The position numbers and the translations under genes are program-made. 64,000 nt of DNA from an uncultured Chloroflexia bacterium (GTDB taxonomy: Bacteria > Chloroflexota > Limnocylindria > Limnocylindrales > CSP1-4), in the NCBI GenBank assembly GCA_963719285.1, contig CAVRBO010000004.1, positions 842,064 through 906,063 on the forward strand, written 5' to 3'. Numbering within the stretch: the stretch's first letter is position 1; the number at the start of each line of letters is the position of its first letter. Below the pieces are notes generated by a model. The model made no database searches. It worked only from the letters and a program-made list of their open reading frames with translations, and was not told the origin of the DNA. This document shows positions 17,244 to 62,429 of this stretch, piece by piece.

Positions 17244-17375
17244 CCGCCATGAGGGCCGGTGCGGTGCGTCCGTGCCCCGCCGGTCCGCGACCCGCGCGGA
17301 ACCGATCCCTCTCCACCCGCGTCAATGCCCCACTTCGGCCGCGACCCCGCGGCCCTCCGTGGGAGCCTCCGACCA

Positions 17376-18146: not shown

Positions 18147-18292
18147 GTCACGCACTCGATCCATCGTGGCAGTACGAGCAGGACTCCCGAGCGAAGGCGC
18201 CGGGGTGACCGGGCGCACGGGAGTGACATCGCTCGTGGATCGCCTTCCCTTCGGGTCGTCGTCGAAGGCCTGTCACCCGCGGCTGGGGGCGC

Positions 18293-19591: not shown

Positions 19592-19653
19592 CCTGCGATG
19601 CTAGTCGTCATCGCCGCATGGCCTTTGCTAGGCTCCCGCGAGGAGGTGGGCGG

Positions 19654-20010: not shown

Positions 20011-20122
20011 GTCGGCCTGCACTCCGGTGCGCCTGGCCAGCCCCGGCGCCTTCGCTCGGGGGTGCGCCGGGCCACCCCGGCGCCTTCGCTCGGGAGTCTT
20101 GCCCCGCGGGATCGCAGCGGGA

Positions 20123-38761: not shown

Positions 38762-38777
38762 TGCGCAACCGATTTCG
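38762..38777. promoter_or_regulatory. Candidate LacI-family operator (copy 4)
   Basis: TGCGCAACCGATTTCG lies 70 nt upstream of the Gfo/Idh/MocA start. Its core GCAACCGATTTC matches the reverse complement of the core of the 43357 site at 11 of 12 positions. Confidence 0.35.
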
Positions 38778-38845
38778 CGGGGCGAGGGCGGGTCGACTAC
38801 CATCGCGGCCTGGCGCCCAGCGGAGTGCGCCCATCGGAGGGCCGG

Positions 38846-39871
38846 ATGACGGCGCGGATCGGACTGGCGATCATCGGGGCGGGACGGATGGGCAGCAACC
38901 ACGCCCGGCTCATCGCCGCCGGCGCGCCCGAGCTGCGGATCGTCGCGATCGGCGACGTCGACGGCGATGCCGCCCGTCGCCTGGCCGACGAGATCGCGGC
39001 GACGCCGTTCGCCGATCCACTCAAGGCGATCGCGGCACCGGGGGTCGACGCGGTGCTCATCGCCGTCTCGTCGGTCCACCACCGGGCGATCGTGGAAGCG
39101 GCCGCCGCCGCCGGCCGCGACATCCTGTGCGAGAAGCCCCTGGCGCTCGATCTCCCCGAGACGGACGCGATCCTGGCCGCGGTCGCCCGGGCGGGTGTCC
39201 GCCTGCAGGTCGGCCTGATGCGCCGGCACGACCCGGATCACGTCCGGGCACGCGCCCGGATCGTCGCCGGGGAGCTCGGCCGGCCGCTCCTGTTCAACAG
39301 CCGCCAGTACGACACCGACCCGCCGCCCGCGGCCATCCTGGACCCCCGGATCAGCGGCGGGATCATGCTCGACATGGGGATCCACGAGTTCGATTCGGGG
39401 CGCTTCCTCATGGATTCGGAGGTCGTCGAGGTCCAGGCGACCGGCTCGGTCCAGGTCTACCCGGACGCCGCGACCCACGGCGACGTCGACACGGCCGTGG
39501 TCAACCTGAGATTTGCCTCCGGGGCCATCGGCAGCGTCGAACTCAGCCGGCGGGTCGCCTTCGGCGAGGACGTCCGGACCGAGGTCCACGGCACGGACGG
39601 AAGCGCCTTCATCGGCGGCCTGCCGATCGTCTCGGGCTCCGCGTTCGGTGGTCCGGGGGGTGTCCGCTGGGACCCGACCCCGCCATCGATGCCCCGTTTC
39701 GCGGCGGCCTACACGGACCAGGCGCGCGCCTTCGCCCGGTCGATCCTGGACGACCGGCCGGCGAGTCCGTCGGGGGCGGACGGACGGGCCGCATTCGTCA
39801 TCGCGATGGCCGCCCAGCGTGCGCTCGCGGACGGCGGCACGATCACGGTCGAGGCGCCAGCAGGGCCTTGA
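38846..39871 (+). CDS. Gfo/Idh/MocA family oxidoreductase (inositol 2-dehydrogenase-like)
   Basis: ARIGLAIIGAGRMGSNHARL...ILCEKPLALDL... The start is at MTARIG (38846) with GGAGG upstream. Confidence 0.8.
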   Translation: MTARIGLAIIGAGRMGSNHARLIAAGAPELRIVAIGDVDGDAARRLADEIAATPFADPLKAIAAPGVDAVLIAVSSVHHRAIVEAAAAAGRDILCEKPLALDLPETDAILAAVARAGVRLQVGLMRRHDPDHVRARARIVAGELGRPLLFNSRQYDTDPPPAAILDPRISGGIMLDMGIHEFDSGRFLMDSEVVEVQATGSVQVYPDAATHGDVDTAVVNLRFASGAIGSVELSRRVAFGEDVRTEVHGTDGSAFIGGLPIVSGSAFGGPGGVRWDPTPPSMPRFAAAYTDQARAFARSILDDRPASPSGADGRAAFVIAMAAQRALADGGTITVEAPAGP

Positions 39872-40700
39872 TCCGGTCGAACATGAACCGGGACGACTCC
39901 ACGGCGCGCTCCTCCCAGGCGAAGACGCACGCGGTGAGGATGCCGTCGAAGCCGACGGCGCGGAGCGCGCCGAAGCACGCCTCGAAGTCCACCTCGCCCT
40001 GGCCGATGTCGAGATGCTGGTGGACCCGGGCCGTCGAGCCGGGCGGGTTGACGATGTAGCGGTTGCCGGACGACGCCCGATGGTTGAGCACGTCCGCGAT
40101 GTGGACCTGGGCCAGGACGGGCGCGGCGTAGGCGATCATGGCCGCGATGTCGTCGCCGAGGTAGTACGTGTGCGGCGCACAGAAGACATAGCCCACGCCG
40201 GGCGAGTCGATCCCGCGGACGAGGTCGACCGCATCGGTGTTGCGCTCGATGAAGTCGTCCGGATGGGCCTCCAGGTTGAGCTTGATGCCCTCCTGCTCGA
40301 AGATCGGCAGGAGCTCTTCCATCGAGCGCCAGAACTGGGCCTCGCTCCGGGCCGCCTGCTCCGGCCGCCCGTTGAACTCCGAGTTCATCGTCGTGCAGCC
40401 CACGTCCACGCACAGCTGGATCGCCCGCTTCCAGTAGCGCACGGCGGCCAGGCGTTCGTCCTCGTCGGGGCTCGACCAGCGGTAGAGGGGCAGGATCGAC
40501 GCCATCTCGAGTCCTGAGTCGGTCAGCCCCTTGCGGAACTCGCCGACCTTGGCCCGGTCGGCCCGCGGGTGGGTGAAGAACGGGATGAAGTCCGGCCGGG
40601 GCGACAGCTCGATCGCGTCGTAGCCGATGTCGGCCGCGATCCGGCAGACCTCGCCGAACGGCCGGTCGCGGAGCATGTACGGATCGAGGGCGATCTTCAC
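39843..40700 (-). CDS. Sugar phosphate isomerase/epimerase (xylose-isomerase-like TIM barrel)
   Basis: The 285 aa product, ...YDAIELSPRPDF...NLEAHPDDFIERNTDAVDLV...HIADV, matches the AP-endonuclease-2 / xylose-isomerase-like TIM-barrel family. Confidence 0.8.
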   Translation of the reverse strand: MKIALDPYMLRDRPFGEVCRIAADIGYDAIELSPRPDFIPFFTHPRADRAKVGEFRKGLTDSGLEMASILPLYRWSSPDEDERLAAVRYWKRAIQLCVDVGCTTMNSEFNGRPEQAARSEAQFWRSMEELLPIFEQEGIKLNLEAHPDDFIERNTDAVDLVRGIDSPGVGYVFCAPHTYYLGDDIAAMIAYAAPVLAQVHIADVLNHRASSGNRYIVNPPGSTARVHQHLDIGQGEVDFEACFGALRAVGFDGILTACVFAWEERAVESSRFMFDRIKALLAPRP

Positions 40701-40701
40701 G

Positions 40702-43299
40702 TCAGGGAACCTCCCGTGTCGAAGCGATGCGACCGCGGAGCGTCGTCCCGCTCTCCGCGATCCGTGCCGCCATCCGCGCCCGCAGGGCCGGGTCCGCGAT
40801 CGTCGCGATGGTCTCGAGCCATCGTACGGTCCCGTCGATGACGGCGACGATCGCCTCGGCGTCGGTCCTGGCGAACAGCGGCCGATCGACGACCTCGACG
40901 TACACCGGCGAGGTGTGGGCGGCCATGCTCGTCAGGTACGCGGACCGGATCTCGTGGTCGCTCCGCGCACGGGCGGCGATCCAGGCGCCGGACGTGACGT
41001 CCACGAGGGCGGACAGCGACAGCTCGGTCGTGCCGCCCGGCGCATCCTCGCGCGCCACGACCCGGCCATTCATGACGAGCTCCACGCAACCCACGATGGG
41101 CTGGGCTGCCCGGACCCGGATCCGGACCTCCAGGCGGCCACCGGAGGCGGGCAGGACGACGACGTCGCCGGGCTCGTGGCCGTCGACCAGCAGCTCGATG
41201 ACCGGCCCGGACGTGGCGAACGTGCGGCCGGCCCGGACCGCGGCCGCCCAGGACTCGAACGTGGCGGCGCCATCGGGATCGAGGCGCGCATACGTCCGGA
41301 CCCCGCCGAGCGGCATCTCGGCCGACATCTTGTCGGTCCCGCCCAGGACCGGGACGCGATAGCCGCAGTTCAGGAAGCGGTACCACTCGTTGACCGTGGG
41401 GTTGTCGAGGCCGGGCGCGAACGTCTGCATCTCGATCGCGTCGATCCGGCCGGCGACGATGTCGGCCGCGATCTCCGCGAAGGGCAGCGGGAAGTGGGCG
41501 CCGACGACGAGCCCACCCTCGGCATGGCAGCGATCGGCCCAGTCGGCCAGCAGCTCGGCGATCGGGGCGCCGATCGGGCCCTCCGGCGCGCCGCCCGACG
41601 CCAGGGGCAGGATCGGCCGGCGCGCCCCCAGCAGCCCCAGGTGGCCCAGCACGTTCTGGCGGTTCTCGGTCCCGACCATCACGACGTGGCGACCGCTCGG
41701 GTCCTGTTGCGAGCCGAAGGCGAGGTCCGCGACGCTGGCGAACTCGTCGCCGAGCTGGGTGGCGAGCAGGTGCACGAACGTGATGTCCTCGGCGGCCGCC
41801 TGGAGCAGGGCCGTTGAGGGCGGGATGAAGTGGACGTGCGGGTCGGCCGTGCGCCACCCCGCGGCGCGCAGGTCGATCGAGCGATCCAGCGCGAACGCCA
41901 GCTCGCGGGTGCCCGGTCCGACCGTCACGGTCGTGCGCACCGGCCGGTGGTCGAAGCCCTTCACGACCTCGACCTCGACGGCGCCCACCGGCAGGTCGAT
42001 CTCGAACCGACCGGGGACGTAGGCGTAGGTGTCGGCTCCGAGGACGAGGCCGGCGCCGGAGTCCTCGTAGATCCCCGTATTGACCTCGTCGCGATGGCCG
42101 AGCGGCGGCAGGTACCGCCCGTCCGCGGCGACGAACCGCACCCGTGCCGGGCTCGCCTCGCCGTCCGCGCCGACCCGCACCTCGACCCGGACGCCGGCAG
42201 CCGCCAGGGGTTCGATCCTGACCCGACCGTCCGGACTGGTCGCTCCGGTCGCCAGGTCCGCCGCGGCGACCGTCCAGTCACCGAGCGCGATCCGCGCGTC
42301 CGGCGCCAGCGCGAGATCGACGACACGGCGCGCTGCGACCTCGCCGTCGGCCGCGTCGGCGCTGGGTGTCGGCCGGCCCCAGCCGATCGGCCCCGGCCCG
42401 TCGTGCGGGCATCCGCGCGGCAGGGGCAGCGGCCTCGACCGGATCGCGATGCCCAGGTCGACCTCGGGGAGCTCCGCGCCGGCGCCCGTGACGAGGATCT
42501 GCCGGCGGGGCGCCAGAACGAGCGGGTCCGCCGTGCCGGCGAACAGGGTGACGGCCGCGATGACGATGTCCGTCCCGGGTCGTCCGCCGCCGAGCGGGAT
42601 GACCCGGAGCGTCGCGGGCTCGGCGACCCCGCCGAGGGGGATCGCGTGGAGCCAGTACGTCGCGTCGTCGTCGGGCGTCGGGACGAAGTCGGCCACGCCG
42701 GTCTGGTGCGCGCCCCACGAGCCGGGCAGGACCGTGAGCGCCCCGCCGTGTCCGGCCGGCGCGTACCGACCGGGGGCCTGGCGGCTGTACGGGCCGCGCC
42801 AGTCGAGCGCCTCATCAGAGCGATGGCCGATGGCCGCGAACGGCACGAACCCCCAGCCGATGATGCCGTCCGCGATCTCGAACCGGCGTCGCACGTCCAC
42901 GGTCCGGGTCTCGCCGCCGGCCAGGCTGAACTCGTAGCGCGCGAGAGGCTCGCCCGTGGGGAGGACCCAGCCCACCGGGTTCCCGGGGCTGCGTTCGCCG
43001 GTGGCGTCGCGCCAGCTGTCGGCGAAATGGGCGATCACGATGTGGCTCGCCGGACCGTGGTCCCGCAGGTCGATGGTCAGCTCATCGCCGGCGACGATCC
43101 AGCGGCGTCCTGCCGCCCGGAACCCCAGGTCGAACGGCAGGCCACGGAACACCGAGGGTCCCTCGGGCAGGCGGGCGAGGGCCTGCTCATAGAGCGGATG
43201 GAAGCGCGCGCCGACCTCCGCGTCAGACGCGTTCCAGGCCGTCGAGAGGTCGACGGAGCGGGCCAGGGGAGTGGCTCGACGCGTGCGCCCGGTCGTCAT
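40702..43299 (-). CDS. Large uncharacterised protein (865 aa). The N-terminal region of about 480 aa is unknown; the C-terminal part is a divergent PHP-like module.
   Basis: The C-terminal motifs WRTADPHVHF, VMVGTENRQNVLGHLGLLG, GGLVVGAHFP and GGTDKMS align with the PHP protein at 36850-38256. This protein is a paralog of the one at 55467-58061. Confidence 0.8.
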   Translation of the reverse strand: MTTGRTRRATPLARSVDLSTAWNASDAEVGARFHPLYEQALARLPEGPSVFRGLPFDLGFRAAGRRWIVAGDELTIDLRDHGPASHIVIAHFADSWRDATGERSPGNPVGWVLPTGEPLARYEFSLAGGETRTVDVRRRFEIADGIIGWGFVPFAAIGHRSDEALDWRGPYSRQAPGRYAPAGHGGALTVLPGSWGAHQTGVADFVPTPDDDATYWLHAIPLGGVAEPATLRVIPLGGGRPGTDIVIAAVTLFAGTADPLVLAPRRQILVTGAGAELPEVDLGIAIRSRPLPLPRGCPHDGPGPIGWGRPTPSADAADGEVAARRVVDLALAPDARIALGDWTVAAADLATGATSPDGRVRIEPLAAAGVRVEVRVGADGEASPARVRFVAADGRYLPPLGHRDEVNTGIYEDSGAGLVLGADTYAYVPGRFEIDLPVGAVEVEVVKGFDHRPVRTTVTVGPGTRELAFALDRSIDLRAAGWRTADPHVHFIPPSTALLQAAAEDITFVHLLATQLGDEFASVADLAFGSQQDPSGRHVVMVGTENRQNVLGHLGLLGARRPILPLASGGAPEGPIGAPIAELLADWADRCHAEGGLVVGAHFPLPFAEIAADIVAGRIDAIEMQTFAPGLDNPTVNEWYRFLNCGYRVPVLGGTDKMSAEMPLGGVRTYARLDPDGAATFESWAAAVRAGRTFATSGPVIELLVDGHEPGDVVVLPASGGRLEVRIRVRAAQPIVGCVELVMNGRVVAREDAPGGTTELSLSALVDVTSGAWIAARARSDHEIRSAYLTSMAAHTSPVYVEVVDRPLFARTDAEAIVAVIDGTVRWLETIATIADPALRARMAARIAESGTTLRGRIASTREVP

Positions 43300-43321: not shown

Positions 43322-43372
43322 TATTGACGTGGGGCGAGGCGCGATGATACCTTCCCTGCAATCGGTTGCGCA
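43322..43372. promoter_or_regulatory. Putative promoter plus LacI-family operator (copy 1)
   Basis: TATTGACG is at 43322-43329. The near-palindrome TGCAATCGGTTGCGCA at 43357-43372 matches the LacI-family consensus TGNAANCGNTTNCA in 13 of 14 positions. It sits immediately upstream of the AAGGAG site and ATG of iolD, and is divergent from the large paralog at 43299. Confidence 0.5.
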
Positions 43373-43382
43373 AGGAGAAAAG

Positions 43383-45269
43383 ATGGAGACCGTCCGGCTG
43401 ACCGTGGGCCAGGCCATCGTGCGTTTCCTTGCCCAGCAGTATGTCGAGCGGGACGGACGCGAGGGCCGCTTCATCGAGGGCGTCTGGGGCATCTTCGGGC
43501 ACGGCAACGTGGCCGGCCTGGGCCAGGCCCTCGAGGAGCTCGGCGACGCCGAGGCGATGCCGTACTACCGACCCCAGAACGAGCAGGCCCAGGTCCACCT
43601 GGCCGCGGCGTTCGCCCGCCACCACAACCGCCTCCGGGCCTATGCCTGCACGTCGTCGGTGGGACCTGGCGCGATGAACATGGTCACCGGTGCCGCCGGG
43701 GCGACCGTCAACCGCATCCCTGTCCTGCTCCTCCCGAGCGACTACTTCGCCAACCGGGCCCCGGATCCGGTCCTCCAGCAGATCGAGCACCCGACCGAGC
43801 GCGATGCGAGCGCCAACGACGCCTTCCGGCCGGTCTCGCGCTTCTTCGACCGGATCTCGCGGCCGGAGCAGCTCCTCGGCTCCCTGCCGGAGGCGTTCCG
43901 TGTCCTCACCGATCCGGCAGAGACGGGAGCGGTGACGATCTCGCTGCCCGAGGACGTCCAGTCCGAGGCGTTCGACTGGCCGACCCGGTTCTTCGGGAAG
44001 CGCGTCTGGCGGGTCCGGCGCCCGCAGCCGGACGCGGCCGACCTGGCCGCCGCGGCGCGGGTCATCGGCGCGTCCAAGGCCCCGGTCATCGTCGTGGGCG
44101 GCGGCACGATCTACTCCGAGGCGACCGACGAGCTCGCCGCGTTCGCGACCCGCTTCGGCATCCCGGTCGTCGAGACCCAGGCCGGCAAGGGCGCCCTGCC
44201 CTGGAACCATCCGATGAACGCCGGGCCGGCCGGCACGAACGGCGGCCTGGCGGCCAACCGGCTGGCCCGCGACGCGGACGTCGTCATCGGCATCGGGACC
44301 CGGATGGGCGACTTCGTCACCGCCTCGCGCACGACCTTCCAGCATCCCGGCGCGACGTTCGTCGGCATCAACATCGGGTCGATGGACGCCCACAAGTGGC
44401 GGGCGATCCCGGTGGTCGCAGACGCTCGCGAAGCGATCCGGGCGCTCGAGGCGCGGCTCACCGCGGACGGCTACGCCGGCACGGCGGCTCCCTATCGCCG
44501 GCGGATCGCGGACCTCAAGCACGAGTGGGACGGCATCGTCGACGGCCTGCGGGCGATCAACGGCGAGCCGGGCGATCTCGGCCAGGCCGAGGTGATCGGC
44601 CTCGTCAACGACGCGGTGGGCGGCCACGCGACCGTCATCTGCGCCGCCGGCAGCCTGCCCGGCGACCTGCTCCGCCTGTGGCGGCCCGAGGACCCCAAGG
44701 CCTACCACGTGGAGTACGGCTTCTCGTGCATGGGTTACGAGATCGTGGCCGGGCTCGGCGTACGCCTGGCCGACCCCGAGCGCGACGTGGTCGTCATGGT
44801 CGGCGACGGGTCGTATCTCATGCTCAACTCGGAGATCGTGACGGCGGTGGCCGAGGGCCTCAAGTTCACGATCGTCGTCCTCGACAACCATGGCTTCCAG
44901 TGCATCCTCGCGCTGCAGCGCCTGGTAGGCGTGCCCGACTTCGGCAACGAGCTCCGCTTCCGCGACCCGGAGCGCAACCGGCTGACCGGGCCGTACGTGC
45001 CGGTGGACTTCAAGGCCCACGCCGAGGCGATGGGCGCCCTCGCGATCCACGCCTGCACGCCCGATGAGCTGCGCGCCGCGCTCGCCCAGGCGAAGGTCGC
45101 CGACCGGGTCACGGTCATCGTCGTCCCGACCGAGCCCGAGAAGCGGATGCCCGGCTTCGAGTCGTGGTGGGACGTGCCGGTCGCGGGCGCGAGCGGACAG
45201 GCCGGCGTGCGGACCGCCCGGAAGGACTACGACAAGAAGCGCGCCGCCCAGCGCATCGACATCCAGTGA
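43383..45269 (+). CDS. iolD: 3D-(3,5/4)-trihydroxycyclohexane-1,2-dione acylhydrolase (thiamine-diphosphate enzyme, IolD-like)
   Basis: METVRLTVGQAIVRFLAQQYVERDG... is a typical IolD N-terminus, with a TPP-binding GDGSYLMLNSE motif. The start is at 43383 (AAGGAG site); the ATG at 43329 from the ORF track was not used. Confidence 0.85.
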   Translation: METVRLTVGQAIVRFLAQQYVERDGREGRFIEGVWGIFGHGNVAGLGQALEELGDAEAMPYYRPQNEQAQVHLAAAFARHHNRLRAYACTSSVGPGAMNMVTGAAGATVNRIPVLLLPSDYFANRAPDPVLQQIEHPTERDASANDAFRPVSRFFDRISRPEQLLGSLPEAFRVLTDPAETGAVTISLPEDVQSEAFDWPTRFFGKRVWRVRRPQPDAADLAAAARVIGASKAPVIVVGGGTIYSEATDELAAFATRFGIPVVETQAGKGALPWNHPMNAGPAGTNGGLAANRLARDADVVIGIGTRMGDFVTASRTTFQHPGATFVGINIGSMDAHKWRAIPVVADAREAIRALEARLTADGYAGTAAPYRRRIADLKHEWDGIVDGLRAINGEPGDLGQAEVIGLVNDAVGGHATVICAAGSLPGDLLRLWRPEDPKAYHVEYGFSCMGYEIVAGLGVRLADPERDVVVMVGDGSYLMLNSEIVTAVAEGLKFTIVVLDNHGFQCILALQRLVGVPDFGNELRFRDPERNRLTGPYVPVDFKAHAEAMGALAIHACTPDELRAALAQAKVADRVTVIVVPTEPEKRMPGFESWWDVPVAGASGQAGVRTARKDYDKKRAAQRIDIQ

Positions 45270-45328
45270 CCCACCCACACGCCCCGAGCCTGCCCGGGCC
45301 GGGCGCGTCCGCTTAGCGAGGAGACAGC

Positions 45329-46567
45329 ATGCCCGGACCCGGGATCGAGCTCGTCGGCGCCGAAGAGACGGCCGAGGTGATGGAGGTGCTCCAGAGCGGC
45401 TACCTGAGCCGCTACGGCCCATCCGACGACCCCCGGTTCAAGGCCAAGGTCCACCACGTCGAAGAGGCGATCGCGAAGCTGACCGGGGTCAACCACGCCC
45501 TCGCCCTCCATGGCGGTGGATCGGCGGCGTTGTGGATCACCCTGCTCAGCCTGGGCATCGGAGCGGGCGACGAGGTCATCGTGCCCGGGTTCACCTACGT
45601 CGCCTCCATCTCGGCGATCGTGTACACCGGCGCGACGCCGGTCCTGGCGGAGATCGACCAGACGTTCGACCTGGACCCGGCCGACGTCGAGGCGAAGATC
45701 ACGCCCCGCACGGCGGCGATCCTCGTCGTCCACATGTTGGGTGGGGTGGCCCGGATCGAGGAGCTCAAGGCGATCGCCGACAAGCACGGGATCGCCCTCA
45801 TCGAGGATTGCGCCCAGGCATTCGGAGCGTCGTACAAGGGCCGCAGCGTCGGCTCATTCGGCATCGCCGGCACGTACAGCTTCAACGAGTACAAGACGAT
45901 CACCTGCGGCGACGGGGGGATGATCGTGACCGACGACGCCGGCCTGTACGAGCGCGCCTTCGCCATGCACGACCAGGGCCATGCCCCGGACCGGCTCGAG
46001 TCGAAGTACGCGCCGCGGCCCTTCCTTGGCATGAACTTCCGGATGACCGAGTTGTCCGGTGCCGTTCTCGGCGCGCAGGTCAGGAAGCTCGACACCATCG
46101 TGTCGCACCTGCGGGCCAACAAGGCGATCGTCAAGGACATGCTCGAAGAGGTCCCGATGATCGACTTCCGGACCTTGACCGACCCCGCGGGCGACCTCGC
46201 CACCCACCTCGTCGTCGTGCTTCCGACCGCGGAGATGGCCGACAAGGTGGTGGCGGAGGTCGGCTCGAGGACCCTCGGCGAGTCGGGCTGGCACACCTAC
46301 AGCCGGATGAACCACCTGCTCGACAAGCGGACGATCAACGGCAAGGGCTGCCCGTTCGATTGTGGCGACCCCAGCCACGCCCACGGCGAGTACCGCGCCG
46401 GCATGCTCCCCCAGACCGACGCGCTTCTCGATCGCTCGCTGAGCATCGGCATCGGGGTCAAGGATGCGAACCTGGCGCCGTTCGGCCTCCGGATGCGCGA
46501 CGGGGCGGCCGAGGCCCGGCAGGTCGGGGCCACGTTCCGGGACGCCGTGATCAAGCACCGGGCGTGA
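45329..46567 (+). CDS. DegT/DnrJ/EryC1/StrS-family PLP aminotransferase (scyllo-inosose / sugar aminotransferase-like)
   Basis: ...EVMEVLQSGYLSRYG...ALALHGGGSAALWITL...HMLGGVARIEELKAIADKHGIALIEDCAQAFGASYKGRSVGSFGIAGTYSFNEYKTITCGDGGM is a DegT-family fold. A GAGGAG ribosome-binding site is present. Confidence 0.85.
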   Translation: MPGPGIELVGAEETAEVMEVLQSGYLSRYGPSDDPRFKAKVHHVEEAIAKLTGVNHALALHGGGSAALWITLLSLGIGAGDEVIVPGFTYVASISAIVYTGATPVLAEIDQTFDLDPADVEAKITPRTAAILVVHMLGGVARIEELKAIADKHGIALIEDCAQAFGASYKGRSVGSFGIAGTYSFNEYKTITCGDGGMIVTDDAGLYERAFAMHDQGHAPDRLESKYAPRPFLGMNFRMTELSGAVLGAQVRKLDTIVSHLRANKAIVKDMLEEVPMIDFRTLTDPAGDLATHLVVVLPTAEMADKVVAEVGSRTLGESGWHTYSRMNHLLDKRTINGKGCPFDCGDPSHAHGEYRAGMLPQTDALLDRSLSIGIGVKDANLAPFGLRMRDGAAEARQVGATFRDAVIKHRA

Positions 46568-46583
46568 TCGCGAGGGGTCGTCG

Positions 46584-47582
46584 GTGATCGAGGCGGTCGT
46601 CGTCGGTCGGGTCGGCGTCGATCTCACCCCAGCGACGCCCCGAACGACGCTGGCCGCCGCGGACGGCTTCGTCCGGGCCGTCGGCGGGTTCGCCGGCAAC
46701 ATCGCCACGGGCCTCGCCCGGCTCGGGGTGTCCAGCGCGGTCGTCTCGGCCGTCGGCGACGACGGGCACGGCGACCACGTGCGTGCCTTCCTCGCGGGGG
46801 AGGGGATCGATGTCGGGGCGCTCGTCACCCGGGCGGGGTCGCGGACCCAGGTGGCGTTCTTCGAGGTCTGGCCGCCGGAACGCTTCCCGGTGACGTTCTA
46901 CCGGCCCGCCCCGGCACCCGAGACGCGACTGACGGTCGCCGACCTGCCCGTGGCGCTCCTGGACGAGGCGCCGCTGGTGATCGTCTCCGGCACGCTCCTG
47001 GCCACCGAACCGGCCCGCTCCGCGACGATGAGCCTCCTCGAGGTGCGACTGGCGTCGCGCTCCCGGCGGCCACCGTCCACCACGATCCTGGACCTGGACT
47101 GGCGCCCCACCCTGTGGGCTGACCCGGCCCAGGCGCCCGCGCTCATGGCCAGAGCGGCGGGACTGTCCGACATCCTCATCGGGAGCGACGCGGAGTTCGC
47201 GGCGACGGGCCTGGATCCGGCGATCGGCCGCGATGCGCATCCCGCGCTCATCGTGCTCAAGCACGGCGCGGATGGCGTCTCGCTCGTGACGCCGGGTGGT
47301 CGTCGGACCCTGGCCGGCCTCCCGATCGACGTCCTGTGCGGGATCGGGGCCGGCGACGCACTCAGCGCGGCCTTCGCCGCGGGCCTGCTCCGCGGCCTGG
47401 ACCCGGCGACGGCGCTGGAACGTGGCAATGCCGCCGGGGCGATCGTCGCCTCGCGCCTGATGTGCAGCACGGCCATGCCGACACCGGCCGACATCGACGC
47501 GCTGCTGGCCGCCCGGTCGAGCGTGCCTCGCCCGCGCGGCCCCGACAACCGACAGAGCCGTCCGCAGGAGGCCCGTCCATGA
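46584..47582 (+). CDS. iolC: PfkB-family carbohydrate kinase (5-dehydro-2-deoxygluconokinase-like)
   Basis: GRVGVDLTP...FVRAVGGFAGNIATGLARLG...GAGDALSAAFAAGLL is ribokinase/PfkB-like. Its position between the aminotransferase and iolB supports the call. Confidence 0.7.
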   Translation: MIEAVVVGRVGVDLTPATPRTTLAAADGFVRAVGGFAGNIATGLARLGVSSAVVSAVGDDGHGDHVRAFLAGEGIDVGALVTRAGSRTQVAFFEVWPPERFPVTFYRPAPAPETRLTVADLPVALLDEAPLVIVSGTLLATEPARSATMSLLEVRLASRSRRPPSTTILDLDWRPTLWADPAQAPALMARAAGLSDILIGSDAEFAATGLDPAIGRDAHPALIVLKHGADGVSLVTPGGRRTLAGLPIDVLCGIGAGDALSAAFAAGLLRGLDPATALERGNAAGAIVASRLMCSTAMPTPADIDALLAARSSVPRPRGPDNRQSRPQEARP

Positions 47583-48505
47583 CGAACGCAGGCGCCCCCC
47601 GGGAGCCGGTCATCCACCCGGCGAAGCTCCCGATGACCCGCGATGTCGCCTCCCTGCACATCCATCCCGATGGCACGGGCGCCGTCGCGACCGACCCCGC
47701 CCGGTCGGGCTGGCGGTATCTCTCGTTCCGCGCGTTCGGGCTCGCCGACGGCGAGGTCGTGGAGCTCGACCGGCCCGAGCAGGAGGCCGCGATCGTCACG
47801 ATCTCGGGCGGCGGCGTGGAGGTCGCGCCCGAGCGCGGCCCGGCGCTGGCGCTGCCCGGCCGGACCACGGTCTTCGCGGGGATGCCCTGGAGCGCGTATA
47901 TCCCGGCCGGGACCCGGACCCGGATCGTCGGCCGGCCGCTCCCCGGGCAGCGGGCCGTCGTGGCGGTCGCCCAGGCCCCGGGAACGGGTCGGGGCGGAGT
48001 GGCCCCCGAGCCGATCCTCGTGCGACCGGACGAGGTGGAGATCGAGATCCGGGGCGCCGGCAACGCCACCCGCCAGATCAACAACATCATGATGCCGGGC
48101 TTCCCCGCCGACCGGCTGCTCATCTGCGAGGTCTTCACCCCGAACGGCAACTGGTCGGGCTGGCCGCCCCACAAGCACGACGTGGACGACCCGCCACGCG
48201 AAGCGGTCCTCGAAGAGACGTACTACTACCAGATCAGCCGGCCCGAGGGCTGGGCGATCCAGCGCGTCTACCACCGCGATGGATCGCGGGACCTGGTCCT
48301 GCCGGTCCGCCATGGCGACCTGCTGAGCGTCGACCAGGGTTACCACCCGTTCGCCTCGACCCAGGGCTACGACGCCTACTACCTGAACGCACTGGCCGGC
48401 GACCGGCGGACGATGGCCAACACGGACGATCCGGACCTCGCCTGGGTCCGCACGCTGTGGCCGTCGATGGTGCCGGATCCCCGCCTGCCGCTCGTGCACA
48501 CGTGA
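47579..48505 (+). CDS. iolB: 5-deoxy-glucuronate isomerase
   Basis: ...SGWRYLSFRAFGLADGE...TPNGNWSGWPPHKHDVDDPPREAVLEETYYYQ... is the IolB family. It overlaps the upstream stop (ATGA). Confidence 0.8.
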   Translation: MTNAGAPREPVIHPAKLPMTRDVASLHIHPDGTGAVATDPARSGWRYLSFRAFGLADGEVVELDRPEQEAAIVTISGGGVEVAPERGPALALPGRTTVFAGMPWSAYIPAGTRTRIVGRPLPGQRAVVAVAQAPGTGRGGVAPEPILVRPDEVEIEIRGAGNATRQINNIMMPGFPADRLLICEVFTPNGNWSGWPPHKHDVDDPPREAVLEETYYYQISRPEGWAIQRVYHRDGSRDLVLPVRHGDLLSVDQGYHPFASTQGYDAYYLNALAGDRRTMANTDDPDLAWVRTLWPSMVPDPRLPLVHT

Positions 48506-49434
48506 CGGTCGAGGAGCGCCGCCTGCGGTTGCTCCGACTGGCCGGCGATCGGGGCATCGTGGCCGGCATCGCGCTCGATCATCGCGACAGCCTCCGATCC
48601 ATCCTCGAGCGGCGGGGCCTGGTCGGCCTCACGGACGCCGCGATGCGCTCCCTCAAGGTCCGGCTGGCCCGGGCGCTCGCCCCGGCGGCCACGGCGATCA
48701 TGCTGGACGAGGAATTCGGCGGCGAAGCGCTCGATGCGGGCGTGGTGCCGGCGTCAGTCGGCCTGATCATGCCCCTCGAGGCGCAGGGCTACGAGATGGT
48801 CGAGGACGGTCGGACGACCACCCTGCTCGCCGACTTCTCGCCCGACCATGCCCGCCGGCGCGGCGCCGACGCCTGCAAGCTGCTCCTGCCGTACCGGGTC
48901 GACCACGAGCCCTCGGCGATCCGCCAGGACGCCCTCGTGGAGGCGGCGGCGCGGACGTGCCACGAGGCCGGGCTGCCGCTGGTCGTGGAGCCCGTCGTGT
49001 ACCGCTGGTCCACCGAGCCGGCCGCCACCTACGCCGGTGCGTACGGACGCCTCGCGATCGAGGCCGTCGCGCGCATCCGGGCACTCGGACCGGACCTGCT
49101 CAAGCTGCCGTTCCCCGTACTCGGCCTGGCCACCGACGGCGAGGCGGCGGCGCTCGAAGCCTGCCGGGCGCTGGACACGGCGTGCGCGGGCACGCCCTGG
49201 GTCCTCCTCGGCGCGGGCGCAGATACCGCCACCTTCATCGACCAGATCCGCATCGCCGGTACGGCCGGGGCGTCCGGGTTCCTCGCCGGTCGCGGGATCT
49301 GGGCCGCCGCCCTGGGGCGGGATCCGGACGAGGTGGAGCGGGTGGCGCTGGCCGTCTGCCGCCCGGACTTCGAGCGCTGCCGGGCGATGGCCGAACGGGT
49401 CGCCCGTCCCATCGAGGCACCGGCGAGCGGCTGA
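48502..49434 (+). CDS. Class I aldolase (tagatose-1,6-bisphosphate aldolase / LacD-DeoC-like); candidate 6-phospho-5-dehydro-2-deoxy-D-gluconate aldolase
   Basis: IALDHRDSLRSI...DACKLLLPYRVDH...LPLVVEPVVY...DLLKLPFPV. A GTG start overlaps the iolB stop (GTGA). Confidence 0.65.
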   Translation: MTVEERRLRLLRLAGDRGIVAGIALDHRDSLRSILERRGLVGLTDAAMRSLKVRLARALAPAATAIMLDEEFGGEALDAGVVPASVGLIMPLEAQGYEMVEDGRTTTLLADFSPDHARRRGADACKLLLPYRVDHEPSAIRQDALVEAAARTCHEAGLPLVVEPVVYRWSTEPAATYAGAYGRLAIEAVARIRALGPDLLKLPFPVLGLATDGEAAALEACRALDTACAGTPWVLLGAGADTATFIDQIRIAGTAGASGFLAGRGIWAAALGRDPDEVERVALAVCRPDFERCRAMAERVARPIEAPASG

Positions 49435-49489
49435 CGCCGGCGTCACCGCCCCACCGCCGAACGTTCGTCCCGACCCCCAGGAGTCAACG

Positions 49490-50347
49490 ATGCGTCTCGT
49501 CTACAACTCCAATTCGACGATGTACCTCCCGGCGCTCATGCAGATCCGGATCGCCCGGGAGACCGGCTGGGACGGGATCTTCGTCCGGGCCGAGCACCTC
49601 CTGCGCTACCTCGCCCAGGGCTACCCGGTCGAGAGCCTGCGCGACGCGCTGGCCGGCCTGGGGCCGGTCAACCTGGGTGCGTTGCCGGACGTGGAGCGCT
49701 GGCGACCCGACGAGCGGGCCGCGATGCTCGCGGAGGCGGAGGCGCTGACCCGACTGGCGGTGGACGTCGGGGTCACGAACGTCCAGGTCCTGTCCGGACC
49801 GGTCTCCCCCGGCGGGGCGTACGGCGGCCCGGCGGAGCTGGCGCCGGCGGAGCTCCGGCGGGTGACCGCCGAGGCGATCCGGGCCGTCGCCGACCTCGGC
49901 GCGCCGCACGGGATCCGGTACTACCTGGAGCCCGTGGCATGGACGCCCCTCGGTTCGCTCGCCCGGGCGGTCGAGGCGATCGACGCCGTCGAGCGCGACA
50001 ACGTGGGCCTCGTGCTCGACTTCTGGCATCTCTGGCAGCGGGGCACGACGCCGGACGAGATCGCCAGGCTCGACCGCCGGGTCATCTCCGGGGTGGACTT
50101 CGCCGACTCGCTGGGTCCGGCGGGCGCGCCGACGCCGGAGCAGGCAACGCGCCGCGTCTGGCCGGGCGAGGGCGAGATCCCGCTCCGGGAGTGGGTCGCC
50201 GCGGTCCGTGCGACCGGCTTCGACGGCTGGTGGGACAACGAGTTGTACAGCCCGCTCCACTGGGAATGGGCGGATCCGTTCGCGGTCGGCTCCGGACTCC
50301 TGGAGGTCCTCCGGATGTCGCTGCGGGATCGACCCTCGGTCAGGTAG
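49490..50347 (+). CDS. Sugar phosphate isomerase/epimerase (xylose-isomerase-like TIM barrel; IolE/IolI-like)
   Basis: ...WDGIFVRAEHL...YYLEPVAWTPLGSLARAVEAIDAVERDNVGLVLDFWHLW... A CAGGAG ribosome-binding site is present. Confidence 0.75.
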   Translation: MRLVYNSNSTMYLPALMQIRIARETGWDGIFVRAEHLLRYLAQGYPVESLRDALAGLGPVNLGALPDVERWRPDERAAMLAEAEALTRLAVDVGVTNVQVLSGPVSPGGAYGGPAELAPAELRRVTAEAIRAVADLGAPHGIRYYLEPVAWTPLGSLARAVEAIDAVERDNVGLVLDFWHLWQRGTTPDEIARLDRRVISGVDFADSLGPAGAPTPEQATRRVWPGEGEIPLREWVAAVRATGFDGWWDNELYSPLHWEWADPFAVGSGLLEVLRMSLRDRPSVR

Positions 50348-50395
50348 ATTGACGTCGCGGATGCGCGGGTGCTACGGTCTGCGCAATCGGTTGCA
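50347..50395. promoter_or_regulatory. Putative promoter plus LacI-family operator (copy 2, autoregulatory position)
   Basis: GATTGACG is at 50347-50354. TGCGCAATCGGTTGCA at 50380-50395 is essentially the reverse complement of the 43357 site. It lies upstream of the LacI regulator gene. Confidence 0.5.
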
Positions 50396-50587
50396 GTCGT
50401 TGGAGGTGCGGTCCAAGATGCGTGCTTCCCCGCGCGATCTCCGGGCGACCGACGTCGCCTGGTCGGGCGACCTGCGCTGCCATCGGGCCGGATCGGCCGG
50501 TCGGGCACGCCAGCGGGCGGCCCTCGACCGGAGCGCCCGCGGGGCTGACCGCGCCCTTCGCGTCGCGGTCTAGGGGAGGAGGGGCGC

Positions 50588-51643
50588 GTGGCGGTGAGCG
50601 GGGACGGCCAGCGCCGTCGGATCCTCCTCAAGGATGTCGCCGCGCGGGCGAACGTGTCCGGTTCGACGGCATCGCGTGCCCTGGCCGACGATCCACGCAT
50701 CAGCCTCGGGACGCGTGAGACGGTCAAGGCCGCCGCGGCCGACCTGCACTACGTCCCGAACGCCGCCGCTCGGAGCCTCCGCGTCCGGCGGACGCGGACG
50801 CTCGGCCTGCTATTGCCGGATCTCCGCGATCCGGTCCACGGCCAGATCGCCTCCGCGTTCGAGCAGGAGGCCCGCGAGGCGGGCTATGTCGTGATGGTCG
50901 TGGCCGGCGAACGGGACCTCGTCCGCGAGCGCCTCGCGCTGCGCATCTTCTCGGAGCACGGCACGGACGGCGTGGCGATCGTGTCGAGCGTCCTGTCGCC
51001 CAGGGAGCTCCGGGAGCGGGTCGACCCCGACCGGCTCGTGCTCGTCTGGCCGGACCACCGGAGCCTGCCCCGGCGCGACGGGCCGCGCGTCCCCGGGGTG
51101 ATCCAGACCGATGACGAGAGCGGCGTCCGCGCGGCCGTCGATCACCTCGTCGACAGCGGCTGCCGGCGGCTGGGCTATGTCGAGAGCGGCGTGCGCGCCT
51201 CCAACACGATCCGTGCCGAGACCGTGGCCGCGACCCTGCGCTCGCGTGGCATCCGCGCCCCCGTGCGGATGTTCAAGGGGAGCGTCGACGCGTGGCGCGA
51301 CCCGGCCGACCTCGCGGCCGAGATCGCCGGGGACCTGCCCGACGCGCTGGTGTGCTACGACGATCTCCTCGCCCTCGGCCTCATGGACGCGCTGCGCGAT
51401 CGCGGCGTGCGCATCCCGGACGACGTCGGCATCGTGGGCTTCGACGGCATCCCGTTCGCGGCGATCTCCAATCCCCGGCTGACCACGGTGGCCGTACCGT
51501 CGGCCGAGATGGGCCGGGCGGCGGCCGCGTCGCTCATCCGGGCGGTCCACGAGGGCGTCCTGCCCGACGGGGTGATGTTGTCGGTGGAGTTCAAGGTCCG
51601 CGAGAGCACCCGCAGCGCAGCGGTGCGGGGTGGTCGCTCGTGA
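50588..51643 (+). CDS. LacI family transcriptional regulator
   Basis: LKDVAARANVSGSTASRALADDPRISLGTRETVKAAAADLHYVPNAAARSL is the LacI helix-turn-helix, followed by a periplasmic-binding-protein-like sugar-binding domain. A GTG start follows a GGAGGA ribosome-binding site. Confidence 0.85.
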   Translation: MAVSGDGQRRRILLKDVAARANVSGSTASRALADDPRISLGTRETVKAAAADLHYVPNAAARSLRVRRTRTLGLLLPDLRDPVHGQIASAFEQEAREAGYVVMVVAGERDLVRERLALRIFSEHGTDGVAIVSSVLSPRELRERVDPDRLVLVWPDHRSLPRRDGPRVPGVIQTDDESGVRAAVDHLVDSGCRRLGYVESGVRASNTIRAETVAATLRSRGIRAPVRMFKGSVDAWRDPADLAAEIAGDLPDALVCYDDLLALGLMDALRDRGVRIPDDVGIVGFDGIPFAAISNPRLTTVAVPSAEMGRAAAASLIRAVHEGVLPDGVMLSVEFKVRESTRSAAVRGGRS

Positions 51644-55466: not shown

Positions 55467-58061
55467 CTACCGTCCGGTCCGGTCGCCCAGCCTGCGGCGA
55501 AGGGTCTCGAGGCTCGTGTCGAGGAACGCGACCATGCGCGCCCGCTCGGCCGGGTCGGCCACGGCGGCCAGGCCGGCGACCCACGTCCGCGCGCCCTCGA
55601 TGACCTGTTCCACGACCCGTGCGTCCTCGACGGACGGCTCGAACGGCCGGCCCCCGACCTCGACGTACACGGGCGACGTGTGGGCCGCCATCGAGGTCTG
55701 GAAGGCCGATACGATCTCGTGCCGGCTGCGCGAGCGGGCGGCGATCCACGCCCCGGCCTCGACCGCGATCGTCTCGTGGAGCGCGAGCTCGGTCGTGCCG
55801 CCGGCCGCGCTCGTCGCCGCCACGATCCGGCCGTTCACGATCAGCTCCACCTCCGACACGACCGGCTGTGCGGCGCGCGCCCGGACCGCCACCTCGAGCC
55901 GGCCGCCCGAGCTCAGCCGGACCACGTCGCCCGGCTCGTGGCCATCGACGGCGAGTTCGAGGACCGGACCGGAGGTGACGAACGTGCGGCCGGCGCGGAC
56001 GGCGGCAGCCCACGTCTCGAACGTCAGCGTCTCGTCGGTCAGCAGGTGGACATATGCCCGGACCGCCCCGATCGGCACCTCCGACGACATCTTGTCGGTG
56101 CCGCCCACGATCGGCAGGCGATAGCCCAGGTTCAGGAAGCGGTACCACTCCAGCACCGACGGGTCGTCCAGGCCGGGAGACAGCGCCTGGGTCTCGAGGG
56201 CGTCGATCTTGCCGGCCACGATGTCGGCCCCGATCTCCGCGTACGGAAGCGGGAAGTGGGCCGCCACGACCAGGCCGCCGGCGGCGCGGCAGCGATCAGC
56301 CCAGTCGGCGAGCAGGACGTCGAGCGCGCCCGCCATCCGGCCCTCGGGCGGGCCGGCGCTGGCATACGGCAGCGTGGGCCGGTGGGCGCCGAGCAGCGCC
56401 AGATGGCCGAGCATGTTCTGGCGGTTCTCGGTCCCCACGACGACGAGTCGCCGGCCGGACGGGTCGGCCATCGAACCCCATGGCAGGTCCGTCACGTTCG
56501 TGTACAGCTCGCCCCACTGGGCGGCCAGGAGGTTGACCAGGTCGACGTCCTCGGCGGCGGCCTGGAGGAGGGCCGTGGACGGCGCCAGGAAGTGGACGTG
56601 GGTGTCGGCGGTGACCCAGCGGCCGGCGTGGAGGTCGATCGCCCGGGCGAGCGGCAGCTCGAGCCGGCGGGTCGCGGGATCCACCTCGATCCGGGCGCGG
56701 TGCGGCAGCCGGTCGAAGCCGCCGACGACCTCGACGTCCACGCCACCGACCGGCAGGTCGATCGCGAACCGGCCCGGGACATAGGCATACGCGGCGGTCC
56801 CGAGGATCAGGTCGCCGCCGGTGTCCTCGAAGAACGCCGGGTTGATCTCGTCGCGGTGGCCGACCGGCGGCAGGTACCGGCCGTCCGGCGTCGTGAAGCG
56901 GACCCGGCCGGGCACGCGCTCGCCGGTCGTCCGGTCCACGATGTCGACCTCCACCGGCACGCGCGGCGCGGGCAGGACCTCGATCGAGCGGAGGCCGGCC
57001 GGGTCGCGCGGCACGTTCCCGGCGAGCAGGTCCCGCCCGGGGACGTCCCAGTCGCCGAAGCCGACGACGGCATCGGGAGCGAGCGACAGGTCGACGACGC
57101 TCGATCCGACGGTCGGGGCGCCGGGCGCCACCCGCGGCGTCCCCCATCCGAAGATCGTGCCAACGTCCCCGGCTCCGTTCGCGCCCGGGGCGGTCGCTGC
57201 CGGAAGGGTCCGGATGATCGTCCCGAGATCCACCTGCGGTGGCCGGCCGTCGAACCCGTTCACGCGGACACTGAACCGCGGGCTCCGGACGAGGGGATCG
57301 CCGGTGCCCCGGAAGAGCGTGACCGCCGCGACGACGACGTCGCTCCCCGGCCTGCCGTCCGTCAGCGACTCGAGCCGGAGCGTCGCCGGCTCGGTCCCCG
57401 GCGGGAGCGCGATCGCGCACAGCCAGAGGAGCACGTCGTCAGTGGGGCTCGGCACGAAGTCGGACATCCCCACCTGGTTGCCGCCGAACGTGCCGGGCAT
57501 GATCGTGAGCGAGCCCGACTGGCCGGCCGGGGCGTACCGGCCCGGGCCCTGGGCGGCGTGCGGCCCGCGCCAATCGAGGACCTCGTTCGCCAGGTGCGGG
57601 ATGGCCGCGAACGGCGCCGAGCCCCAGCCCAGGATCCCGTCGTCGATCTCGAACCGGCGGCGGATCGTCCGCGACGTCTCGCGTCCGGTGCGGTCCGCGA
57701 CCGTGTACCGGGCGAGCGGCTCGCCGACCGGGACGACGTGGCCCACCGCCAGCCCTGGCGGTCGCCGGCCGGCGTCATCGCGCCAGGCATCGCACAGGTG
57801 GGCGACGACGACGTGGCTGGCGGACCCTTCGCCGGGCAGGTCCAGCGTCGCCGTCCCATCCAGCAGGATCCAGCGCGCGACGTCCGCGCCGGCGGCCGGG
57901 CCCAGCTCGAACGGCAGCCCATGGAACACCTGCGGCCCGTCCGGCAGGCGGGCCAGCGCGGGCTCGTAGACGGGGTGGAAGCGGGCGGCGACGACGCCTT
58001 CGGTCGCGTTCCGGAAGCGCTCCAGGTCGACCGTCCGGGCGAGCGGGCTGGAGCGTCCCAT
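55467..58061 (-). CDS. Large uncharacterised protein (864 aa), paralog of 40702-43299, with a C-terminal divergent PHP-like module
   Basis: Collinear with 40702-43299 over its full length, with many identical blocks (ARFHP.YE.ALARLP.GP.VF.GLPF.LG; RRRFEI.DGI.GWG; YAPAG; TADTHVHFLAPSTALLQAAAED; GTENRQNMLGHL; GGTDKMS). Confidence 0.8.
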   Translation of the reverse strand: MGRSSPLARTVDLERFRNATEGVVAARFHPVYEPALARLPDGPQVFHGLPFELGPAAGADVARWILLDGTATLDLPGEGSASHVVVAHLCDAWRDDAGRRPPGLAVGHVVPVGEPLARYTVADRTGRETSRTIRRRFEIDDGILGWGSAPFAAIPHLANEVLDWRGPHAAQGPGRYAPAGQSGSLTIMPGTFGGNQVGMSDFVPSPTDDVLLWLCAIALPPGTEPATLRLESLTDGRPGSDVVVAAVTLFRGTGDPLVRSPRFSVRVNGFDGRPPQVDLGTIIRTLPAATAPGANGAGDVGTIFGWGTPRVAPGAPTVGSSVVDLSLAPDAVVGFGDWDVPGRDLLAGNVPRDPAGLRSIEVLPAPRVPVEVDIVDRTTGERVPGRVRFTTPDGRYLPPVGHRDEINPAFFEDTGGDLILGTAAYAYVPGRFAIDLPVGGVDVEVVGGFDRLPHRARIEVDPATRRLELPLARAIDLHAGRWVTADTHVHFLAPSTALLQAAAEDVDLVNLLAAQWGELYTNVTDLPWGSMADPSGRRLVVVGTENRQNMLGHLALLGAHRPTLPYASAGPPEGRMAGALDVLLADWADRCRAAGGLVVAAHFPLPYAEIGADIVAGKIDALETQALSPGLDDPSVLEWYRFLNLGYRLPIVGGTDKMSSEVPIGAVRAYVHLLTDETLTFETWAAAVRAGRTFVTSGPVLELAVDGHEPGDVVRLSSGGRLEVAVRARAAQPVVSEVELIVNGRIVAATSAAGGTTELALHETIAVEAGAWIAARSRSRHEIVSAFQTSMAAHTSPVYVEVGGRPFEPSVEDARVVEQVIEGARTWVAGLAAVADPAERARMVAFLDTSLETLRRRLGDRTGR

Positions 58062-58094: not shown

Positions 58095-58141
58095 TATTGA
58101 CGGGCCATAGGTCGGACGCTAGCATCGTACAAACGGTTGCA
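58095..58141. promoter_or_regulatory. Putative promoter plus LacI-family operator (copy 3)
   Basis: TATTGACG is at 58095-58102. TACAAACGGTTGCA at 58128-58141 matches TGNAANCGNTTNCA in 13 of 14 positions. It lies in the divergent intergenic region between the large paralog (58061) and the PotA-like ABC operon (58281). Confidence 0.45.
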
Positions 58142-58280
58142 CAAGAGGGAGCTGATGCGCGCATCCCCACCCCCTGCCGCCCGATCATGGTGATCCCGAT
58201 ACACGAACGGGAGCTCCCCGCCGCGCCGACCGAGCCGGCTGTGCCCGAGACGCTGATCGCGCCAGCGAGCGGTTTCGACC

Positions 58281-59366: not shown

Positions 59367-59403
59367 TCGACCGTCACGTGGACGATGCAAGGAGGAGCGT
59401 GGA

Positions 59404-60588: not shown

Positions 60589-60618
60589 TCCCGAAGAGCT
60601 CGGGACGGGACCGACAAC

Positions 60619-62374: not shown

Positions 62375-62429
62375 GGCGCCAGTCACAGGTCGGGTCAGAG
62401 CCGTCGGGCGCCCGGACGAGGTCGCGGCC

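Follow-up and report, generated by a model that had tools for sequence, protein, structure and literature searches.

The window, by which we mean the whole 64-kb stretch of DNA analyzed here (G+C content 72%), carries a cluster of catabolic and transporter operons that looks, from its content, like an inositol pathway. The product of iolD scores 891 bits against TIGR04377, above the cut-off, and the two iolB genes likewise score above theirs; the scores of the iolC-like and iolG-like genes are below their cut-offs. Within the cluster lies a gene for a LacI-family protein, and no second LacI-family gene is found in the 64-kb window. This gene opens an operon that continues with a transketolase, an iolG-like gene and an iolB-like gene. 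The transketolase is split, its N-terminal half and its pyrimidine-binding/C-terminal half being encoded by two genes (51630-53542, plus strand). Co-transcription of a split transketolase and of second copies of iolG-like and iolB genes with a regulator lies outside the classical iol pathway. One metagenome contig (L003) is the same DNA as window positions 40588-61643, and its public gene calls are fragmented over the iolD-to-iolB stretch and over two large paralogous genes, where calls of 730 aa and 441+231 aa stand instead of 865 and 864 aa. Thus, annotation-based searches would miss parts of the cluster.

The NCBIfam CehA/McbA metallohydrolase domain is found in three genes of the window, all on the minus strand (40702-43299, 55467-58061 and 36850-38256). 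In the 865-aa and 864-aa paralogs (A and B), this domain spans residues 481-802, and neither protein belongs to a Pfam family. A search of both against PDB sequences gave no match. An AlphaFold2 model of the large paralog has a mean pLDDT of 70 and a poorly modelled catalytic region; the N-terminal part of ~480 aa is modelled as beta-sandwich domains, and a Foldseek search of the PDB with the model returned immunoglobulin-like beta-sandwich matches alone, with E > 0.001. Homologs of the large paralogs are named from Chloroflexota metagenome bins only, and nothing is assigned to these proteins beyond the NCBIfam domain. The DegT-type aminotransferase (45329-46567, plus strand) has as its closest solved relative KdnA, a Kdo8N transaminase that acts on the free sugar (5k8b, 1.9e-82). 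This is by far the closest and is neither a nucleotide-sugar nor an inosose aminotransferase; inosose aminotransferases are much weaker matches. The SBP_bac_6 binding protein of the transporter operon (~59383-60588) is PotD/PotF-like.

Table 1. Predicted regulatory elements and target genes of the cluster (window coordinates)
Feature	Position	Strand	Remarks
Predicted operator 4, GCAACCGATTTC (weaker)	38765..38776		17.7 bits; over the -35 region of the Gfo/Idh/MocA promoter
Target gene 4: Gfo/Idh/MocA (iolG-like) dehydrogenase	38846..39871	+	
Divergent target: 865-aa CehA/McbA-type metallohydrolase, paralog A (40702-43299), and TIM-barrel gene (39843-40700)	39843..43299	-	
Module 1 -35, TTGACG, iolD operon	43324..43329	+	Invariant in 8 orthologous intergenic regions
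Candidate minus-strand promoter, module 1 (865-aa gene)	TTGCGC 43368-43373; TATCAT 43344-43349	-	18-nt spacer; invariant bases
Module 1 extended -10, TGaTACCTT, iolD	43345..43353	+	18-nt spacer; ATGATACC invariant in 8 orthologous intergenic regions
Predicted operator 1, GCAATCGGTTGC	43358..43369		21.6 bits; over the predicted iolD transcription start; invariant in 8 orthologous intergenic regions
Target operon 1: iolD, DegT-type aminotransferase, iolC-like kinase, iolB, DeoC/LacD-type aldolase, TIM-barrel (AP_endonuc_2)	43383..50347	+	
Module 2 promoter, lacI	50349..50378	+	TTGACG 50349-50354, 18-nt spacer, TGcTACGGT 50370-50378
Predicted operator 2, GCAATCGGTTGC	50383..50394		21.6 bits; 4 nt past the lacI promoter -10
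lacI (351 aa)	50588..51643	+	First gene of an operon that extends to 55453; Pfam LacI, Peripla_BP_1, Peripla_BP_3
Divergent target: 864-aa paralog B	55467..58061	-	58% identical to paralog A
Module 3 promoter, ABC transporter	58097..58125	+	TTGACG 58097-58102, 17-nt spacer, TAGCAT 58120-58125; conserved in 9 loci
Candidate minus-strand promoter, module 3 (864-aa gene)	TTGTGC 58139-58144; TGcTAGCGT 58116-58124	-	17-nt spacer; conserved bases
Predicted operator 3, ACAAACGGTTGC	58129..58140		21.2 bits; 3 nt past the module 3 -10
Target operon 3: two coupled upstream ORFs, PotA-like ATPase (58281-59366), TAT-signal SBP_bac_6 binding protein, two permeases, F420/LLM-class oxidoreductase	58155..63461	+	
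Module 3 upstream-ORF relay	uORF1 58155-58193; uORF2 58187-58288; ATPase TTG start 58281	+	

A preliminary description of this DNA reported four LacI-family-type palindromes, which are present in the window exactly where it placed them: TGCAATCGGTTGCGCA at 43357-43372, TGCGCAATCGGTTGCA at 50380-50395, TACAAACGGTTGCA at 58128-58141 and TGCGCAACCGATTTCG at 38762-38777. The gene contexts that it gave are also correct. The sites lie before iolD (start 43383), which is divergent from the 865-aa gene, before lacI (50588), between the 864-aa paralog and the ABC ATPase gene, and before the Gfo/Idh/MocA gene (38846); we refer to the first three, with their upstream promoter elements, as modules 1-3. 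All four contain the core GCAA-N-CG-N-TTGC, an even palindrome centered on CG, and the label "LacI-family-type" is apt, in that most LacI-family motifs have this form (PMC4052901). The proposed 14-mer consensus, TGNAANCGNTTNCA, stands only in its inner part: the 12-bp core is conserved, whereas the outer T and A vary among orthologs.

The sites are far more frequent than expected by chance. With at most one mismatch, TGNAANCGNTTNCA has four matches in the 64-kb window, against 0.17 expected, and none of 100 shuffled sequences reached four. Three of these matches are among the sites already described. The remaining match, at 16899, falls within a PDH-E1-like gene; it does not fit the 12-bp core, its matrix score is low, and we consider it a chance match. 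For the core GCAANCGNTTGC, a limit of one mismatch gives exactly four matches in the window, each of them in intergenic DNA (38765, 43358, 50383 and 58129). When two mismatches are allowed, 17 matches are found against 23 expected in the window, which is the chance level and yields no extra sites. A scoring matrix (consensus GTGCAATCGATTGCAC) that was trained on related metagenome loci only, with the window excluded, assigns the four sites 17.7-21.6 bits, and the next best position in the window scores 6.8. The score of operator 4, 17.7 bits, barely exceeds the top score of 20 shuffles (16.9). The best non-site score of 6.8 bits is itself below the maxima of mononucleotide shuffles (mean 12.4, highest 16.9), and the window seems to be poor in sequences that come close to the operator.

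Boxes reading TTGACG had been noted upstream of the first three palindromes. They are indeed present, ending 27, 25 and 25 nt before them, and modules 1 and 3 both read TATTGACG, as had been stated. The pattern TTGACG-N17/18-TANNNT occurs three times in the 64-kb window, only at modules 1-3, whereas 0.01 and 0.03 occurrences are expected. In module 1, for example, TTGACG is followed by 18 nt, TGaTACCTT, 4 nt, GCAATCGGTTGC, AAGGAG and the iolD ATG. At all three modules, the predicted promoter is of the sigma-70 type and the operator starts 3-4 nt after its -10 element. A consensus promoter scanner applied with a strict rule to 38.5-58.4 kb found, on the plus strand, the promoter of module 3 alone; those of modules 1 and 2 need the TANNNT rule. 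The fourth site is arranged differently, with a -10-like hexamer, TACCAT (38798-38803), located 21 nt downstream of the operator.

A scan of reference genomes with the LacI protein gave just two distant loci (50% and 32% identity), and a metagenome collection was therefore used for comparison. Scanning metagenome contigs with an alignment of LacI orthologs produced 80 loci. The sources of close LacI homologs are named as Chloroflexi, Chloroflexota or Candidatus Limnocylindrales; by these names, the DNA comes from a high-GC, Limnocylindria-type member of the Chloroflexota and not from an actinobacterium. Operator and promoter precede lacI in ~35 orthologous loci whose LacI proteins are 61-86% identical, and also in distant ones at ~50%. 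In nearly all loci in which LacI is at least 61% identical, GCAA(T/C)CGGTTGC lies ahead of the matched LacI start at a distance of 40-183 nt, and a TTGAC box is present at -32 to -37 before the operator. Thirty-one of 32 lacI-side modules can be parsed as TTGAC(G/T/C), 17-18 nt, TGnTAnnnT, 3-8 nt and the operator, and the TG of the extended -10 is present in all 31. Because a conserved extended -10 lies at this distance, the suggestion that the TTGACG boxes are -35 elements is well founded.

The remaining sites are also retained in related loci. In the longer contigs (L007, L023, L032, L048 and L085-L088), the iolD-side site is retained along with a -10 of its own (ATGATACC), and so is the transporter-side site, where the same ACAAACGGTTGC variant is accompanied by a CGCTAGCAT -10. 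The sequence ACAAACGGTTGC stands at the equivalent place in L023, L028, L032, L034, L048 and L088, and L024 and L071 have GCAAACGGTTGC there. In the loci of the distant, ~50% identical regulators (L001, L043, L044, L050-L057 and L076), GCAATCGGTTGC or GCAACCGATTGC follows a TTGAC box. The sequence of operator 4 is identical in L085 and L087, again 21 nt from TACCAT, and L086 has no core match there with at most one mismatch, such that the site appears to be missing. Across dozens of metagenome loci, the sites take the same three or four positions relative to genes.

Two further differences among these contigs concern gene content. In L086, the Gfo/Idh/MocA gene has as its neighbors a P450 gene and a set of inserted prophage-like genes (ParB/methylase, terminase and integrase; 13501-21368). 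An EamA-family transporter gene lies between the aldolase and TIM-barrel genes in L085 (3007-3879), L086 (2940-3815) and L087 (within 2986-4827), and it is absent from the equivalent place in the window (~49434-49490).

Conservation is confined to the promoter and operator elements. Averaged over the columns of 33 distinct modules, identity reaches 0.97 at the -35, 0.96 at the -10, 0.99 at the operator and 0.93 in the last five bases of the spacer, and it falls to 0.50-0.56 in the rest of the spacer and in the flanks. This pattern bears on the idea that the repeated module is a non-regulatory remnant of a segmental duplication, in which paralog A and its intergenic region gave rise to paralog B, or else a dispersed repeat. 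Two of the modules do adjoin the paralogous genes, and TTGACG, TANNNT and the palindrome occur in the same order at all three. However, paralogs with just 58% identity reflect an old duplication, and the lacI-side module has no adjacent paralog. Moreover, modules 1-3 have only the functional elements in common, and their spacers are unrelated in sequence; thus, they are not recent copies of one another. Since orthologs also conserve the -35, -10 and operator columns alone (0.96-0.99, compared with ~0.5 elsewhere), we regard this origin as very improbable.

The palindrome might instead act in RNA, as a hairpin in the 5' UTR that affects translation or stability. At modules 1-3, it would be transcribed and lies directly before ribosome-binding sites. 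However, such a stem would be short, having only 4-5 base pairs (GCAA/TTGC), and mismatched at its center. Compensatory changes are absent, and the bases that are conserved fit recognition by a protein. Operator 4 is upstream of its -10, and therefore would not be transcribed. A search of the whole window with Rfam at gathering thresholds gave zero matches, and thus none of the long 5' regions holds a riboswitch or an already described leader. An RNA function for the palindrome consequently appears highly unlikely.

These observations leave a DNA operator as the preferred reading, and the question becomes which protein binds it. The LacI protein has an N-terminal helix-turn-helix and a periplasmic-binding-type domain (PF00356, 2.2e-13; PF00532; PF13377, 1.3e-33), and it aligns over its full length to the structures of PurR (1pnr and others, E ~1e-28), CcpA and RbsR. 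Its hinge, NAAARSLR, occupies residues 58-65, of which A61, R62, S63, L64 and R65 are invariant in 24 orthologs. In characterized LacI-family members, the leucine of the hinge helix inserts at the central CpG of the operator.

The purF-type operator of Escherichia coli PurR is ACGCAAACGTTTGCGT, and the consensus of the CcpA cre site is TGWAANCGNTNWCA. The window sites share the GCAA-N-CG-N-TTGC operator core type with PurR, whose resemblance extends to the full-length protein alignment and to a hinge of the form ARSL(K/R), and the 14-mer consensus of the preliminary description is nearly identical to cre. It is therefore conceivable that the sites are bound by another LacI-family protein encoded elsewhere, such as a global regulator of the CcpA or PurR kind, and that the local LacI protein has some other target. 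The scan for the motif covers 64 kb of an 806-kb contig, and a core so like generic cre and PurR boxes would suit such a protein. However, the outer T and A of cre are not conserved in these sites, and the regulator is a local one, encoded in the same cluster as its targets. The protein is also not an equivalog of CcpA (115.8 bits against TIGR01481, whose cut-off is 442) or of PurR (113.7 bits against NF007979, whose cut-off is 501). In addition, all four sites in the 64 kb fall in one cluster, and dozens of short contigs have the motif together with an ortholog of this LacI protein, in most cases 40-200 nt ahead of its gene. It follows the regulator even where gene content has changed, as in L088 and L053. 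Binding by a different LacI-family protein is thus improbable, if slightly less so than the two alternatives considered above.

The four palindromes are therefore very probably operators of the LacI-family repressor encoded at 50588-51643, which is predicted from comparative sequence data to be a local and autoregulated regulator. The proposal that the LacI protein at 50588 controls a candidate regulon is supported by its domain architecture, by the site before its own gene, and by the co-occurrence of motif and orthologs in dozens of loci. Within the window, the stretch that it would control measures about 25 kb, and the earlier figure of 20 kb is too small.

In the divergent intergenic regions, the plus-strand -35 boxes are 24 and 35 nt from the starts of the hydrolase genes. 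The same stretches hold candidate promoters for the opposite direction; these include the operator, and they are placed back to back with the plus-strand promoters, whose -10 elements they overlap. Bases that only the minus-strand hexamers require are retained: A 43344 and A 43347 do not vary, and most loci have ACG at 58116-58118. No indels occur in these stretches among the compared loci, and the intergenic DNA beyond the module is not conserved (8 iolD-side regions and 9 transporter-side loci). The consensus promoter scanner found no promoter on the minus strand of 38.5-58.4 kb, and so the divergent promoters are inferred from the invariant bases. The lacI-side module mostly has an A before the TG too, though it has no divergent gene, and the reading of the minus strand should be weighed with this in mind. 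Operators 1 and 3 probably lie within minus-strand promoters of the 865-aa and 864-aa genes, such that the promoters of both directions share one operator. Because this operator would occupy the spacer and the -35 of the minus-strand promoter, one dimer could close both directions.

The leaders of modules 2 and 3 contain small ORFs. In module 3, the operator is followed by a Shine-Dalgarno sequence (AAGAGGG) and an ATG, both conserved, from which one to three short ORFs run on in a chain. This arrangement is present in all eight loci examined (the window, L023, L024, L028, L032, L034, L048 and L071); the encoded peptides are unrelated, and the stop and start codons overlap (ATGGTGA, GTGA, TTGCCTGA). 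The ATPase start codon (TTG, GTG or ATG) has no Shine-Dalgarno sequence, and the last TGA of the chain overlaps codons 2-3 of the ATPase gene. In six of the eight loci, the final TGA is placed in codons 2-3, and in these the second codon ends in T (CCT or GCT), despite a G+C content of 0.91 at third codon positions of the gene. When the interiors of five long leaders were shuffled, a complete relay was formed in just 6-21% of trials. From this sequence pattern, we infer that the upstream-ORF chain would hand ribosomes to the ATPase start, and that translation of the transporter would be coupled to it.

Translational coupling that depends on upstream ORFs has been described in high-GC bacteria, for example in Mycobacterium tuberculosis (PMC11260477), as has termination-reinitiation at overlapping stop and start codons (PMC6728339). 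The known cases share with the present one an NTGA-type overlap of stop and start codons and a downstream start without its own Shine-Dalgarno sequence. They differ from it in that one to three non-conserved short ORFs lead here in series from a single ATG with a Shine-Dalgarno sequence to the ATPase gene.

The ~190-nt leader between operator 2 and the LacI start is filled by a 51-aa upstream ORF (MRASPRDL...; 50419-50573). Several orthologs have an equivalent GTG or ATG "MRAS" codon in frame with LacI, only 50-75 nt from the operator; it follows that a variable insertion, present in the window and in some of its relatives, sets an upstream ORF apart. Both small ORFs, after modules 2 and 3, start with "MRASP," which was considered as a sign of a duplicated leader and rejected, in that the transporter-side ORFs of orthologous loci start differently. 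We treat the resemblance as a coincidence, and MRAS- is the N-terminus of the regulator itself in several loci.

Regulation by this repressor would proceed as follows. A LacI dimer would bind each 12-bp core, GCAA(T/A/C)CGGTTGC, with the leucine of its hinge helix (AAARSLR) presumably inserting at the central CpG as in characterized relatives. Since operators 1-3 lie immediately after the extended -10 elements, they cover the predicted transcription starts of iolD, lacI and the ABC transporter operon and would block RNA polymerase. These starts are predicted near 43360, 50385 and 58132 on the plus strand, and those of the candidate minus-strand promoters near 43337 and 58109. Operator 4, over the -35 region, would occlude the Gfo/Idh/MocA promoter. 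At the two divergent intergenic regions, a single dimer would shut both directions, and through operator 2 the repressor would limit its own synthesis. PurR requires a corepressor for binding, and most sugar-type members of the LacI family are released by an inducer. In the scheme proposed here, the repressor would be released by a small-molecule effector, which is probably either the imported amine-bearing sugar or cyclitol itself or one of the products of its breakdown.

This arrangement of operator and promoter is ordinary, and as a regulatory mechanism it contains nothing new. A survey of the LacI family (PMC4052901; Ravcheev et al. 2014) found autoregulation in 72% of regulators, and it distinguished seven non-orthologous groups of LacI-type IolR proteins that regulate inositol genes; the groups described there include AAur_1987, mlr1005 and HCH_03302. 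The present system resembles the regulons of that survey in its even palindrome with a central CG, in the site before the gene of the regulator itself, in having iol genes among its predicted targets, and in the placement of sites near the starts of clustered catabolic and transporter operons. This likeness is one of features. It differs from them in that it belongs to a Limnocylindria-type Chloroflexota lineage outside the sample of the study. Unlike the IolR regulogs, it has a conserved core that consists of the large metallohydrolases, the DegT-type aminotransferase and the PotA/PotD-like transporter. The content of the regulon, the shared divergent promoters and the upstream-ORF relay are more unusual than the operator.

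Two loci are informative about the purpose of the regulon. L088 (1-12601) has no iol genes, yet all three operator classes are kept there, as are the regulator, the transporter, the aminotransferase and the two hydrolase paralogs. L053 (2372-14990), from the ~50% group, encodes a large protein without a Pfam family, a TIM-barrel protein, a gluconolactonase-like protein, an SDR, a DegT protein, LacI and the same type of transporter. Neither of these reduced or alternative clusters has iolD, iolC, iolB or iolJ. Because the regulator and operators are kept in their absence, the iol genes look like an accessory part of the regulon, which may not be primarily an inositol regulon. A reasonable guess is that the substrate is an amine-bearing sugar or cyclitol. 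MosB is known to transaminate scyllo-inosose (PMC6668481), and a role in scyllo-inosamine metabolism was accordingly considered for the aminotransferase; its closest solved relative is KdnA and not an inosose aminotransferase, and we retain this role only as a possibility.

A more specific proposal is tentative, and we consider it rather doubtful as a whole. The cluster might encode a so far undescribed system by which soil Limnocylindria break down an amine-bearing sugar or cyclitol. The conserved core of this system would be the two CehA/McbA-type hydrolases, the KdnA-like DegT aminotransferase and the PotA/PotD-like transporter, with the iol genes as an optional downstream module. One operator would act on overlapping, face-to-face promoters, and synthesis of the transporter would proceed via one to three coupled upstream ORFs.

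The analysis provides a comparatively supported regulon, with operator, promoter, regulator and targets, for an abundant group of uncultured soil Chloroflexota in which transcription signals are almost undescribed. The promoters of these Chloroflexota resemble canonical sigma-70 promoters of the form TTGACG / TGnTAnnnT. The association of two families of uncharacterized large metallohydrolases, an aminotransferase and a polyamine-type transporter with the iol pathway offers a lead for assignment of the substrate. Once the effector is known, the pair of repressor and operator could be used as a heterologous part for biosensing.
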